Shown piece by piece: positions 78 to 39,332 of a DNA stretch of 39,332 bases. The notes beneath the pieces were generated by a model, which was not told the origin of the DNA, ran no database searches, and saw nothing but the letters and a program-made list of their open reading frames with translations. Source of the DNA: a virus (Duplodnaviria > Caudoviricetes); the IMG/VR virus record IMGVR_UViG_3300024518_002718, positions 1-39,332 of that record; one strand, given 5' to 3'. Position 1 is the stretch's first letter; every line of letters starts with the position of its first letter. The position numbers were made by a program, and so were the translations under genes.

Positions 78-359
78 TCAGCCGTAGCCGTAGCCGTAGC
101 CGTAGCCGTAGCCGTAGCCGTCGCCGTAGCCGTAGCCGTAGCCGTAGCCGTAGCCGTCGCCGAAGCCGTAGCCGTAGCCGTAGCCGTAGCCGTAGCCGTA
201 GCCGTAGCCGTAGCCGTCGCCGTCGCCGAAGCCGTAGCCGTAGCCGTAGCCGTCGCCGTCGCCGTCGCCGTAGCCGTAGCCGTAGCCGTCGCCGTCGCCG
301 TAGCCGTAGCCGTCGCCGTCGCCGTCGCCGTCGCCGTCTAGAGTTACCTGCCAGACCAT
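78..359 (-). CDS. Gly-Tyr/Gly-Asp dipeptide repeat protein (93 aa, MVWQVTLDGDGDG...GYGYG)
   Basis: Open frame overlapping the end of the upstream gene; almost entirely (GY/GD/GF)n. Confidence 0.65.
   Translation of the reverse strand: MVWQVTLDGDGDGDGDGYGYGDGDGYGYGYGDGDGDGYGYGYGFGDGDGYGYGYGYGYGYGYGYGFGDGYGYGYGYGYGDGYGYGYGYGYGYG
81..338. repeat. Hexamer tandem array (GCCGTA/GCCGTC/GCCGAA)n
   Basis: Directly visible; encodes the GY/GD repeats. Confidence 0.97.
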
Positions 360-682
360 GCCGACGCCTCGCATGGAATAATTGCGATGACGGCCCGCTT
401 GGCGACCTTCACAGTGGCGGGTTCATCCAGTTTGGTCTTGTCCGTGGGGCCGTGATTTGCGATCTGATTCAAGCCGCGCTCAGCCCCCCAAACGCGCACG
501 ATCTGCGCATCTTTGATGATGGTGTACTCGCCATCGTCGCAGGCATCCCCCACCCAGACGTGGCCGCGATCCGCGACGACAATAGCGAGGCCATGGTGGC
601 CGTCGTTTGGTGAGGTCTGCGTCTCTGACTGCCCCGTAAGGGCGCCGATGATTGCGGCGAGTTGACTTGTGGTGATGCTCAT
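344..682 (-). CDS. Conserved phage protein, DUF6948-like
   Basis: IVVADRGHVWVG...DAQIVRVWGAERGLNQIANHGP pattern; strong RBS GGAGGA; this family is typically next to Gly-rich repeat ORFs. Confidence 0.75.
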   Translation of the reverse strand: MSITTSQLAAIIGALTGQSETQTSPNDGHHGLAIVVADRGHVWVGDACDDGEYTIIKDAQIVRVWGAERGLNQIANHGPTDKTKLDEPATVKVAKRAVIAIIPCEASAWSGR

Positions 683-9293: not shown

Positions 9294-9408
9294 TAGCTTT
9301 CGGGGGCGCGCACACCACCGGCCCCGCGTTAGCGAACAGCGGAAAGGGCCGGTGCTACTGCATTCTCACAGCAAGAGGCGAACACCCCGAAAGGGACTCG
9401 ACTAGCTA
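9294..9408 (+). promoter_or_regulatory. Structured late-operon leader
   Basis: CTTTCGGGG(9297-9305)/CCCCGAAAG(9385-93) encloses CACCGGCCC(9316-24)/GGGCCGGTG(9346-54). Confidence 0.6.
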
Positions 9409-9704
9409 TGGTTAAAAAAACAAATCAAAACGTGATCGGCAAAGGCAAGCCCGGGCCTGGACGCCCAAAAGGCACGGTCAACAAGAGAACGGCACTGCTG
9501 AAGGATAGCATCCTGCAAGCCGCCGCAGAGGCGCACGAAGGCGGTATGGTCGGATACCTGACCGAGCAGGCCAAGGACAACCCCACGGCATTCCTGACGC
9601 TTCTTGGCAAAGTCCTGCCCATGGATGTGACAAGCGGCGGCGAGAAAATCGCAATGCCAACAACGATCCTCCTAGAAGCTGCGATTGACAGCCGCGCGGA
9701 TTAA
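9408..9704 (+). CDS. terS: Terminase small subunit
   Basis: GPGRPKGTVNKRT..LKDSIL.A......GGMVGYL..QA..NP.AF.TLLGKVLP; upstream of terL. Confidence 0.8.
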   Translation: MVKKTNQNVIGKGKPGPGRPKGTVNKRTALLKDSILQAAAEAHEGGMVGYLTEQAKDNPTAFLTLLGKVLPMDVTSGGEKIAMPTTILLEAAIDSRAD

Positions 9705-9732
9705 GCTGCGTTACCGTGTAGCTTTTGGATAG
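9685..9732 (+). pseudogene. Probable vestigial original TerL N-terminus (TTG-TAARIKL...)
   Basis: Overlaps the terS end as a coupled terL start would; aligns with TAHVEL of the replacement N-terminus; stops after 15 codons. Confidence 0.45.
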
Positions 9733-9758
9733 ACCAAAGCATAAAGGAATAGTAGAAT
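9730..9758 (+). promoter_or_regulatory. Putative promoter of the HNH gene
   Basis: TAGACC-N17-TAGAAT in an AT-rich patch. Confidence 0.5.
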
Positions 9759-9786
9759 CAACCTCATGCAATTGAGGGTGAAAACG

Positions 9787-10485
9787 ATGAAAACTATTCG
9801 GACGGAACAGCAGGACGGGCTAAAGCGGAACCGTCCAATCAAGGATTGGAGCGGAACTAGGTTCGGTCGTTTGACGGCGCTTTCTCTGGTTGAGAGGGAT
9901 GTGAAGTATCGGAACCACAAGTGGCTTTTCCGATGCGACTGCGGAATTGAGAAGGTGGTTCCGATCAGATTGGTGGTAACGGGACATGCAGCCTCTTGCG
10001 GCTGTCTGGCATCTGAGGCTCTGGCGGAGCGCAATAGAACGCACGGGCTGACCCGCTCGAACCCAAAGGAATATCGCTCATGGAAGGACATGCGCGGTCG
10101 CTGCAACAATCCGAATGACGCGAGCTACAAAGACTACGGCGGTCGCGGTATCAGGGTTTGCCGTGAGTGGGACGACTTCTCGGTGTTTCTGAGAGACATG
10201 GGGCTGAGACCAGACGGAAAGACGTTGGATCGCATAGATGTAAATGGCGATTACCAGCGTGAAAACTGCCGTTGGGCTGGCCACAAGGAACAAGCGCGCA
10301 ACAAAAGAAACAACGTCAATATCGAAATCGACGGCGTAACCAAGACGCTGGCCGAGTGGTGCGTGATCTACAAAACAGATTCCTCCAAAGTCAGGTATCG
10401 CCTCGACCACGGGTGGAGCGTCAAGGGTGCATTTACTGATGGCCGATACCAAAGAAGTAACCGCGCATGTGGAGCTACCGCGTAA
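9787..10485 (+). mobile_element. Free-standing HNH homing endonuclease between terS and terL
   Basis: GTRFGRLT, CDCG...SCGC, YGGRGIRVC..W, TLDRIDVNG.Y...NCRW...EQARN; 3' end overlaps the terL start. Confidence 0.88.
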
Positions 10486-11749
10486 ACTAGTCTCAGTGTT
10501 TTCTGGGAGGGCACGATACCGCGCCGCTTATGGAGGGCGCGGTTCGTAGCCGGGTAAAACCAGATCATTCGCCAAGATGACGGCGGTCAAAGGCTATCAG
10601 TGGGGCGCGGCGGGCCATGAGGGGCAGATCCTCTGCGCACGCGAATTCATGAACAGCCTGGACGAATCCAGCCTTGAGGAAATCAAGGCTGCCATCCGGT
10701 CAGAGCCTTGGCTGAATGCCTACTACGAGATTGGCGAAAAGTTCATTCGCAGTGTGGATGGCCGGATAAAATACACATTCAGCGGGCTGCGCCACAATCT
10801 CGACAGCATCAAATCGAAAGCGCGGATCTTGCTGTGCTGGGTTGATGAGGCCGAACCAGTGACGGAAGAGGCATGGCGCAAGCTGGTGCCGACGATCCGC
10901 GAGGAAGGCTCAGAAATCTGGGTGACATGGAACCCGGAGCGCAAGAACAGCCCGACGCACAAGCGGTTCCGAGAGACACCCCCAGACGGCGCAAAAATCG
11001 TGGAACTGAACTGGCGGGACAATCCTTGGTTTCCCGAGGTTCTTGACCTTGAGCGCAAAGGGGACATGAAAGCGCGCCCCGACCATTACCCCCATGTCTG
11101 GGAAGGCGATTTTGTTACAGTCGTGGATGGCGCCTATTTTGCAGAGGGGTTGACACAAGCCCGATCTGAGGGGCGTGTGGGCCGGGTGGCCGCAGATCCT
11201 CTCATGACGACGCGGGCGGTCTGGGATATTGGCGGGACGGGCGCAAAGGCCGACGCCTGCGCAATCTGGATTGTGCAATATGTGGGCCGCGAAATCCGCT
11301 TTCTGAATTATTACGAGGCTGTCGGGCAACCCCTTGCAACACACGTTCAATGGCTGCGCTCAAATGGGTACGACAAAGCGCTTTGCGTTCTGCCTCATGA
11401 CGGGGCGACGAACGACCGGGTGCATGACGTGTCATACGAAAGCGCACTGAGGGCGGCGGGGTTTGAGGTTCAGGTTGTTCCGAACCAGGGCAAGGGCGCG
11501 GCAATGGCGCGAGTCGAACAGGCGCGGCGGTTGTTCCCCAGCATGTGGTTCAACGAGGCGACAACGGCGGGCGGCTTGGATGCTGTCGGCTGGTATCACG
11601 AGAAACGAGACGATGAGCGCGGCATAGGCCTAGGCCCCAATCACGACTGGTCTAGTCACGGCGCAGACGCCTTCGGGCTGGTGGCTGTCGCCTATGAAGC
11701 GCCAAGCGAAGCGAAAATTCCCGATTTCAAGGCTAGGAGCGTCTTTTGA
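10439..11749 (+). CDS. terL: Terminase large subunit (PBSX/Terminase_3-like), Walker A interrupted by in-frame TAG CCG at 10547-10552
   Basis: MADTKEVTAHVELPRKLVSVFSGRARYRAAYGGRGS*PGKTRSFAKM is in frame with 10577-11749 (CAREF, Walker B WVDEAE, TWNP, nuclease WDIG...SHGADAF). Confidence 0.9.
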
Positions 11750-34265: not shown

Positions 34266-34442
34266 TCATTCGCTCATATCCACAAGATCCGCGGGGTTGG
34301 TCACAACAGGTTGCGCTTTTGGGCACACATCGTAAAGCAGAGAGCCATCGGCCCCGCGCTCAACGCGGACCGTGACGCCTTCTTCGCGGGCAATCCGGGC
34401 GACCTCGCGCAGGGCAGCTAGAGGTAAGGGGCGCGCAGTCAT
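34266..34442 (-). CDS. Small protein (58 aa, MTARPLPLAALREVARIAREEGVTVRVE...), excisionase-like by position
   Basis: ATGA-coupled to the upstream HNH gene; below the ORF-track length cutoff; function inferred. Confidence 0.55.
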   Translation of the reverse strand: MTARPLPLAALREVARIAREEGVTVRVERGADGSLLYDVCPKAQPVVTNPADLVDMSE

Positions 34443-34885
34443 TGGGGGGTGCCCCCAAACAAGCCAGCCGCAAACCTGCGCTTCTCTCTCCCCCTGCGCC
34501 GTGCTGGCGCGTCATAGCGATTGTGGCACCTCTGGCACAGCGCGCGCAGGTTCTCGCGTGCGCAGTTCTCCGGCTGGTGGTCGAGGTGGGCGACGGTCAG
34601 AATGACCTTTACTTCGCGTTGCGTATCAAACGTGTACGCGCAAGTGCCAGCTATGTATGTCCCGGTGTCGGCGCAGATCGAGGCCTCGTATGCTGTCAGG
34701 TCCATTGTCCGGTAGGCGGGGACAGACTGATCACTCGCGCGCGCGCGATCGGTGCCTCGCTGGATGGTCTCGTTATTCGGCGCATTGCACCATTCGCAGC
34801 GGTTGCCTGCATCGTTTCGGACTCTCTGGCTGATTTGTTTCCAGTCGTCTGGATAGCGGGCGCGATTTTCTGGGCGGATCGGCAT
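34439..34885 (-). CDS. HNH-family endonuclease
   Basis: MPIRPENRARYP.DW, CEWC, LTVAHLDH.PENC...NLRALCQRCHNRYD. Confidence 0.85.
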   Translation of the reverse strand: MPIRPENRARYPDDWKQISQRVRNDAGNRCEWCNAPNNETIQRGTDRARASDQSVPAYRTMDLTAYEASICADTGTYIAGTCAYTFDTQREVKVILTVAHLDHQPENCARENLRALCQRCHNRYDAPARRRGREKRRFAAGLFGGTPQ

Positions 34886-35221: not shown

Positions 35222-35487
35222 GACTCGTTCTCCAAGGCGTCGGCCATTGTCAGAAGCGCAATCGCCAACTGTCGCGCGGCGTTGGGCCTTAGCCATATTT
35301 CGTCCATGGGGTTATCGGGTGCGTTGTGGTCGCTCTGGCGAATAAACATTTCAGCGCCATCGTGCGATACAGTCACATAAATAGACTCTTTGCAGGATAT
35401 TTCTATCCCTGTCAGTGCGTCGTTAAAATCCCGGCGGCAACCGCACCTCTGTCCATGTGCGGCACTCATGCAGCAAGGCGCGGTCAT
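35218..35487 (-). CDS. Hypothetical protein
   Basis: ATGA-coupled both sides; ARQLAIALL..AD helix. Confidence 0.6.
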   Translation of the reverse strand: MTAPCCMSAAHGQRCGCRRDFNDALTGIEISCKESIYVTVSHDGAEMFIRQSDHNAPDNPMDEIWLRPNAARQLAIALLTMADALENES

Positions 35488-35840
35488 TGGGCGTTCTCCA
35501 AAACATGCGCCAGCGCGTCTTGCGTCCCTGCAACCCAGTCCGTATCTGGGCCGTGCAGCCGCCTCCACTTCGACGGCTGTTGATGCAGGGCGACCTTGGA
35601 CGTGTCGCGCAATCCTTGGTGATGTCCCTCGCACAGGGGGATAGCCGTCACATCTGGCGACTTCCGCGCGCTGTATCGTCCGTGGATGGGGTGATGTGCT
35701 TGTGTGTGGCTGTCCTGCTGGTGGCCAAATGCAACGCATATGCAGCACGGCAGGCCACGCACAGCGGCAAGGTAGTCAGGCCGGGGCATTGCGCGCGCCA
35801 CCTTCTGGCCTAGCGGGGGGAGTCCTGCAAGATTACTCAT
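35484..35840 (-). CDS. DUF968/Ref-like HNH-fold protein
   Basis: YLAAVRGLPCCIC...AHH...D..AIPLC..HH....H. Confidence 0.8.
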   Translation of the reverse strand: MSNLAGLPPLGQKVARAMPRPDYLAAVRGLPCCICVAFGHQQDSHTQAHHPIHGRYSARKSPDVTAIPLCEGHHQGLRDTSKVALHQQPSKWRRLHGPDTDWVAGTQDALAHVLENAQ

Positions 35841-39087: not shown

Positions 39088-39236
39088 CACACGCACCCCA
39101 GCTTGACTGGCGGCTTGGTCCGGTATGTCGGTGCTGGGAGAGTGACCAGCAGGCCGCGCATCTGAACGTGAGCGGCGGCGGCGCGGCGGTTGGTCGCCAG
39201 CTTGCCGTCTGCGGTGATGTAGATAATCCGGTGCAT
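39087..39236 (-). CDS. First leftward early gene (49 aa, MHRIIYITADGKLATN...)
   Basis: GGAGGATCACAC-ATG; ends TGATG into the next gene. Confidence 0.7.
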   Translation of the reverse strand: MHRIIYITADGKLATNRRAAAAHVQMRGLLVTLPAPTYRTKPPVKLGCV

Positions 39237-39332
39237 GTGTGATCCTCCATCCGTTGGCCGCGTTGGTGCGGCGATGGGGATCTATCTAACAAAACCGCAT
39301 ACACCAGTCAAACAAAAAGTGAGACCGGGCGA
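39234..39332. repeat. 99-nt terminal copy of 680-778 (circular closure)
   Basis: Exact identity by inspection; length typical of an assembler k-mer overlap. Confidence 0.92.

Follow-up and report, generated by a model that had tools for sequence, protein, structure and literature searches.

A six-nucleotide gap in the terminase Walker A motif of a seawater phage contig, carried on a cassette with an HNH-type gene, as a candidate short ribosomal bypass

Results

Six nucleotides split the Walker A motif of terL

The window, i.e. the whole stretch of 39,332 nucleotides analysed here, is a 39-kb podovirus-like phage contig that encodes portal, scaffold, capsid and tail proteins and was found in seawater runs. 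On its plus strand, a likely gene for the small terminase (terS; 9408..9704), assigned from its position, matching phrog_11043 (unknown function) and ~92% identical in a relative without an HNH gene, is followed by a gene for an HNH-type endonuclease of 232 aa (9787..10485; phrog_374, E 1e-66), likely a homing nuclease, and by the gene for the large terminase (terL). The terL frame opened by ATG 10439 reads ...YGGRGS*PGKTRSFAKM, with TCG at 10544-46, TAG at 10547-49, CCG at 10550-52 and GGT at 10553-55. Thus, as the original prediction stated, the Walker A motif is interrupted as GGRGS-UAG-CCG-GKT by a 6-nt coding gap (10547..10552), which consists of a UAG stop and the putative landing triplet CCG and follows directly on the putative take-off codon UCG (Ser; 10544..10546).

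Upstream of the gap lies a terL 5' segment of 36 codons ending in GGRGS (10439..10546), recognized by its reading frame and a weak Shine-Dalgarno sequence (SD; -4.3 kcal/mol); downstream, the 398 codons from GKT onwards (10553..11749) are intact and conserved and encode a Terminase_3 domain. Dropping the six nucleotides indeed restores GGRGSGKT and a TerL of 434 aa (36 + 398 codons), the only TerL match in the whole contig and 73% identical to that of Sulfitobacter phage pCB2047 (closest cultured relatives by TerL among the matches listed). The next start, ATG 10577, has no SD and gives a protein of 390 aa that, as had been noted, lacks the P-loop and its lysine; it is this protein that the annotation of the window calls as TerL. 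Plain readthrough would place two extra residues in the loop, in line with the alignment to the closest solved relative, Sf6 gp2, in which the Walker A motif reads GGRGS--GKS with a gap of two residues. The claim that the rest of terL and the virion genes are intact also held: the Terminase_3 domain is present, changes are mostly synonymous and the virion genes could be identified.

Logan contigs from runs X1 (depth 46), X2 (depth 16) and X3 (depth 5) span the junction with an identical gap; they show 0 differences, and in none of them are the 6 nt deleted. The window itself may come from X1 and X2, and rare variants are dropped from contigs. An assembly slip is unlikely. TAG occurs in 0 of 8549 codons in 24 genes of the window, in which no tRNA gene was found, and we therefore rejected the idea of an amber-recoded phage in which TAG is read as sense. 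A group I or group II intron or an intein in terL was rejected as well because there was no Rfam match there at E up to 1 and the insert is of 6 nt only; the lone Rfam match in the window at this threshold is a chance match to DicF in the portal gene. Among close TerL relatives, two proteins of ~720 aa (P0046, P0097) combine PF14890, an intein domain, with a Walker A motif that is intact.

At its ends (1-56 and 39194-39250), the window has an exact repeat of 35 nt together with an SD and start common to two minus-strand ORFs; this repeat is where the contig begins, and the contig is not closed. Among the window ORFs scanned, neither an integrase nor a repressor was found.

The gap is part of a cassette that replaced the 5' end of terL

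The original prediction missed that the gap is part of a mobile cassette together with the HNH gene. A relative in run X4, which is ~92-93% identical to the window in terS and terL, joins 9709 to 10568 through 83 different nucleotides, and this joint delimits a cassette of 858 nt (9710..10567) in place of 83 nt of terL that include the whole Walker A motif. Before the position corresponding to 10568, an intact GGRGSGKTRG is encoded in X4, X9, X21 and X24 (contig loose ends). The cassette contains the HNH-type gene, a new terL start of 36 codons, the gap, which sits near the 3' end, and 15 more nucleotides. A vestige of the original terL start, a TTG opening the peptide MTAARIKL, is left as a dead end upstream of the cassette (9685..9709; TTG-TAARIKL at 9685-9708), and the parent proteins P0004-P0006 start with L/MTAARIKLP. 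Because these 25 nt and the 83 replaced nt make up exactly 36 codons to Phe 10568, the 858 nt replaced codons 9-36 of the old gene. In total, these sequences establish the cassette, its borders and the intact parent allele.

The parent protein (P0004-P0006; 429 aa) is encoded on 24 contigs and differs from that of the window in 2 of 390 residues; the cassette allele is present on 3 contigs only. Between 10568 and 11149, the window and the HNH-less relative differ in 32 synonymous and 2 non-synonymous codons (36 of the 38 differences listed), giving a dN/dS against the parent of ~0.03, a value that is not assignable to the time after the insertion. The 98 nt adjoining the cassette (10568-10665) contain 1 listed difference from this relative and the next 484 nt contain 35; the difference-poor stretch may be a crossover tract.

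The HNH protein of the window had no Pfam match, and its HNH assignment comes from PHROG only; its predicted structure (pLDDT 90) gave no significant solved match in a fold search, with I-HmuI at rank 2 (E 0.67). The cassette gene is likely a homing nuclease. Further HNH-like ORFs lie in the recombination region at 34442-34885 and 35487-35840 (minus strand).

Gaps recur in the same motif in five other lineages, each beside an HNH gene

A comparison of related terL genes, proposed along with the original prediction and made here by gap-pattern scans and a search with the window's HNH gene, uncovered five other lineages with gaps of 1, 1, 5, 6 and 7 nt in the same Walker A motif, placed either after the same Ser codon as in the window or after the Arg codon two codons earlier. 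After Ser, L081/84/85 has a gap of 7 nt, TCC[TGACTCC]GCC, in which matched codons (UCC...UCC) surround a stop, and L083 has a gap of 5 nt, TCC[ATACC]GCA, with a first-position mismatch (UCC to ACC) as in the window. After Arg, L149 has a gap of 6 nt, CGA[TAACGA]GGG, in which CGA-UAA-CGA is perfectly matched, and L148 (CGA[T]GGC) and L154 (CGA[A]GGC) have gaps of 1 nt with an HNH gene upstream. The codon directly after the take-off codon is a stop or a hungry codon, namely UAG in the window, UGA in L081, UAA in L149 and AUA in L083.

L149 is a complete genome of 35.6 kb (G005) with terminal repeats, in which TAA is a common stop; its only TerL match carries the TAA, and at L149:3262-3300 the in-frame CGA TAA CGA, together with a duplicated terL start before the HNH gene, makes it the cleanest case of a putative stop-hop geometry. 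The vestigial terL start, which also precedes the HNH gene in L154 and L152, breaks in L149 just before the Walker A glycines. In the distinct lineages L148 (2150-2185) and L154 (3065-3100), one extra base follows GGG GGG CGA in the Walker A motif beside an HNH gene. This is a candidate for a +1 event that has an SD-like run at close spacing; if the G run slipped, Asp or Glu would take the place of Arg.

In a tree of 37 TerL ATPase parts, the gap lineages were polyphyletic, with 6 changes of which at least 4 are forced by the starred branches. An HNH gene lies just upstream of terL in all six gap lineages. In L081/84/85 and L083 it is an HNH_3 gene unrelated to that of the window, and the after-Arg gaps (L149, L148, L154) adjoin close relatives of the window's own HNH gene. 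A search with the latter returned 81 loci, 8 of which (6 lineages) precede a TerL of the window's family and 2 a different, intact TerL; no TerL was seen at the rest. Relatives of this HNH gene before a TerL of the window's family were accompanied by a gap in 3 of 6 lineages; among the readable loci that the TerL search had given, 0 of 77 had one (p 2e-4). Those 77 loci, the best 80 of 600 matched and ~3800 estimated less 3 unreadable ones (2 cut by contig ends, and L072, which lost its 5' end by rearrangement), are all HNH-less and intact; three HNH queries found no HNH gene between terS and terL in any of the 77, some of which have short upstream flanks, and in L008 an HNH gene lies upstream of terS instead. 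The gap is not required by the nuclease gene, since HNH genes precede an intact terL in L152/153, L155/156 and L159, and an HNH gene of the L083 type does so in two cultured Vibrio phages.

No insertion occurs among 122 homologous TerL proteins; the loop is ungapped in 116 of them, and the other 6 begin downstream of it. These six (P0013, P0073, P0074, P0086, P0104, P0117; 381-391 aa), three of which cluster with full-length members, are candidates for further gap carriers or mis-called starts.

Scans of DNA with gap patterns found no in-frame sense insert in the Walker A motif of any terL. The scans that gave L081/84/85 and L083 returned 9 matches, 5 of which are not terL, and another returned 44 loci with terL in only the 4 already known contigs. 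A relaxed pattern matched 26 loci in metagenome contigs, i.e. one identical to the window (L095, uncounted), one intact terL in a false register and 24 outside terL, and 28 loci in GTDB genomes, none of them terL. The single match of one further scan was rejected as an intact terL in a false register. No gap was found in cultured phages among the matches listed (3 regions opened), and the split terL annotation of MW202691 was rejected as a gap case, being a mis-called start on an intact gene. The literature searched, mostly outside subscription journals, contained no report of a Walker A bypass in this TerL family. An ORF at 78-374 (minus strand) of the window consists almost wholly of GY/GD repeats, and its plus-strand repeat unit equals the gap hexamer, with 27 copies matching the junction 8-mer; as the hexamer also occurs ~20 times elsewhere, this coincidence is probably due to chance.

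A predicted stem and an SD-like sequence precede the take-off codon

A stem near the stop had been proposed, and folding predicts a stem-loop at 10510..10551 with a core helix of 8 bp (10518-10525 with 10536-10543) that ends right before the take-off codon. At -28.1 kcal/mol it stands out against shuffled sequence (z -3.45; 0 of 200 shuffles as stable) but is borderline against synonymous recodings of the same peptide (p 0.055; 0.007 for L081 and 0.027 for L083). The core is fully paired in all three after-Ser gaps (window, L081, L083), compared with 0 among 73 distinct intact genes (7 of its 8 positions pair in 11 of these), in a register picked after the three cases had been seen; among the three, the types of pair differ at three positions while pairing is kept. 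The after-Arg lineages lack this stem. Extension of the stem into the gap ranked in the top 8% of all inserts for the window, 1% for L081, 34% for L083 and 91% for L149, and is therefore not general. The original prediction likened the locus to T4, in which the stop is inside a stem, and this found no support. The stem conserved here is located 5' of the take-off codon, a position that fits the 5' stem-loop as proposed for T4 and Hau3. The second proposed structure, the small hairpin CGGTT-CGT-AGCCG, folds with the take-off codon at its top, does so no better than expected by chance (z -0.72; within the top 7% among all inserts of 6 nt) and is absent in L081 and L149.

The SD-like GGAGG that had been described 7 nt before the Ser codon was found at 10532..10536 (-9.8 kcal/mol against the anti-SD). 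A purine-ending first Gly codon, which creates such a run, is present in 6 of 6 gap lineages versus 14 of 70 intact genes; a strong SD-like site is also present in 2 of 4 HNH-bearing intact lineages.

Discussion

A probable ribosomal hop over the gap

Together, these comparisons suggest, with a probability of about 0.65, that ribosomes cross the gap by a short bypass and that this allows a homing cassette to spoil the very site it targets, in the manner of T4 gene 60 and MobA. Judged from sequence, a hop of Ser-tRNA from UCG over UAG to CCG that resumes at GGU would be the best-supported reading. In an enumeration of hops, this was the only one with at least two of three codon positions matched that restores the 8-residue loop; the match is of two positions only, as UCG and CCG differ at position 1. 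Translation would start at 10439, and the ribosome would pause with Ser-tRNA on UCG and the UAG in the A site. The tRNA would then release and re-pair 6 nt further on at CCG, matching at positions 2 and 3, and coding would resume at GGU, so that 9 nt would yield one amino acid and the full TerL of 434 residues would be made. The 5' stem would zip up on mRNA exiting the ribosome and thereby exert a forward push, as in the driving force that has been proposed for T4 (bioRxiv 2024.12.09.627546), and the pause would be reinforced by the internal SD. Hop efficiency would probably be low to moderate, with most ribosomes stopping at a peptide of 36 residues; that the level is possibly regulated, as once suggested, found no support, and the link that emerged is to the HNH cassette.

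In phages that lack the cassette, the nuclease would cut within the conserved Walker A DNA; in the carrier, the gap and recoded wobble bases would spoil this site with the protein unchanged, by analogy with T4 MobA, for which the insert and not the flanking polymorphisms blocked nicking (bioRxiv 2022.08.31.505936). The matched codons in L081 and L149 would be the mark of tRNA re-pairing. We see roughly even odds for the broader reading that free-standing homing nucleases attacking the terminase Walker A motif repeatedly solve self-cleavage with ribosome-hopped gaps of 1-7 nt, that the window and L149 are natural, essential in-frame stop hops and that the window, with its mismatched landing codon, is driven by the conserved 5' stem.

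Alternative explanations

The most serious alternative, which we still consider unlikely, is that the gene is dead, i.e. that a recent capture of the cassette broke terL in what is now a defective prophage or a phage packaged by a helper terminase. The cassette allele on 3 contigs comes from three seawater runs of 2018, maybe of one campaign, the contig ends are not joined, and the closest cultured TerL relatives among the matches listed, the Sulfitobacter phages pCB2047, are phages that we take to be temperate. However, random breakage would not fall on the same two codons in all six lineages and each time next to an HNH gene, and neither matched codons nor a conserved stem would be expected from it. 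Moreover, G005 is complete with terminal repeats, the remainder of terL and the virion genes of the window are undamaged, and no stop was present in the Walker A motif of the TerL matches of three samples of 401 bacterial genomes.

Readthrough of stop codons is common, and the gap is in frame in both the window and L149; leaky readthrough of the UAG would yield GGRGS-X-P-GKT in a motor that tolerates two extra residues. This is less probable again, given that no insertion occurred among the 116 full loops, that no terL in the pattern scans carried a sense insert in frame and that the window has neither TAG elsewhere in its genes nor a tRNA gene. The gaps of 1, 5 and 7 nt would be left unexplained, which excludes readthrough as the general answer, and the Walker A arginine and the loop geometry are functionally central in TerL of the Sf6 type (PMC6379665).

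More doubtful still is removal of the six bases before translation, either from RNA by micro-splicing or polymerase skipping or, in some genomes, from DNA by precise excision between short repeats. Direct repeats of 2-3 nt flank the gaps (CG in the window, TCC in L081, CGA in L149), the stem might serve as a guide for a nuclease or ligase, and the run of 8 G in L148 and L154 could slip. Against this, there was no Rfam intron match and no joined form in the run contigs, though contigs drop rare variants, and the SD-like and stop or rare-codon features point to the ribosome; we know of no bacterial machinery that splices 5-7 nt. Finally, a protein split into the 36-residue peptide and a restart at 10577, for which the topoisomerase split by MobA and working as two chains (bioRxiv 2022.08.31.505936) is a precedent, or a hop between the perfectly matched GGU 10541 and GGU 10553 giving GGRGKT, is highly improbable, because the Walker A lysine would be in neither piece and ATG 10577 has no SD, and because the GGU hop would start with a sense codon in the A site and lose two loop residues, a form absent among the 116 full loops.

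Relation to known bypass systems

The known cases of programmed bypassing are T4 gene 60 and its homologues, the byps of yeast mitochondria and, as a strong candidate, the terminase of phage Hau3 (bioRxiv 2024.12.09.627546; bioRxiv 2022.08.31.505936). In T4 gene 60, a bypass of 50 nt is associated with MobA, a homing-endonuclease element (Manning and Atkins, bioRxiv 2022.08.31.505936; Bonocora 2011 as cited there). As in that system, an HNH gene and a coding gap enter an essential gene as one element, the element brings a replacement coding segment, a stop directly follows the take-off codon, a 5' stem-loop is predicted and the gap would spoil the nuclease site. In contrast to it, the host gene is terL and not a topoisomerase gene and is not split into two chains; the gap is of 6 nt, in frame and GC-rich, compared with about 50 nt with a mini-SD and an AU-rich 3' part in T4; no take-off stem holds the codon in its 5' arm; and the landing codon is mismatched at position 1 (matched in L081 and L149), whereas in the gene 60 homologues covered by the excerpted account the codons for take-off and landing always match or wobble-match (bioRxiv 2022.08.31.505936). 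Because it fails several of its defining features, the window is not a member of this system, though it would work alike.

In the terminase of the Streptomyces phage Hau3 and of two prophages, a gap of 7-10 nt lies in a highly conserved junction of the large terminase, and for Hau3 mass spectrometry showed the bypass junction in E. coli when UAA replaced UUA (PMC10732093). The window shares with Hau3 a short non-coding block in an invariant TerL junction and a 5' stem-loop with an internal SD, predicted here and proposed there; the Hau3 junction, KGWG|KD, looks like a Walker A motif, a name not given to it in the part of PMC10732093 consulted. The Hau3 gaps differ in that they open with the rare codon UUA, cause a frameshift and have a proposed regulatory role, with the word 'homing' absent from the same part of that paper, whereas the gap in the window is led by a stop, in frame, in a TerL of the Sf6/PBSX type and tied to an HNH cassette.

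The geometry of codon, stop and codon is that of synthetic 'stop hops' in E. coli, in which 9 nt were decoded as one amino acid at a low level with no stimulatory signals, and as of 2016 no natural in-frame stop hopping was known according to the excerpted review (Atkins et al. 2016, PMC5009743). L149 (CGA UAA CGA) has this geometry exactly, and the window is a near match (2/3).

Bypass is a way of reading genes that is known from very few natural cases. If the proposed hop is true, the window and L149 would be natural cases of a class for which only synthetic constructs have been described to date. Since frameshift screens do not see a hop that stays in frame, and since such a hop mimics readthrough or a pseudogene, others have probably been missed. 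With gaps of 1, 5, 6 and 7 nt that share one site and have landing codons with or without a match, this series would be the smallest test system for what a hop needs, and it would show where such gaps come from, i.e. as the baggage of homing nucleases.
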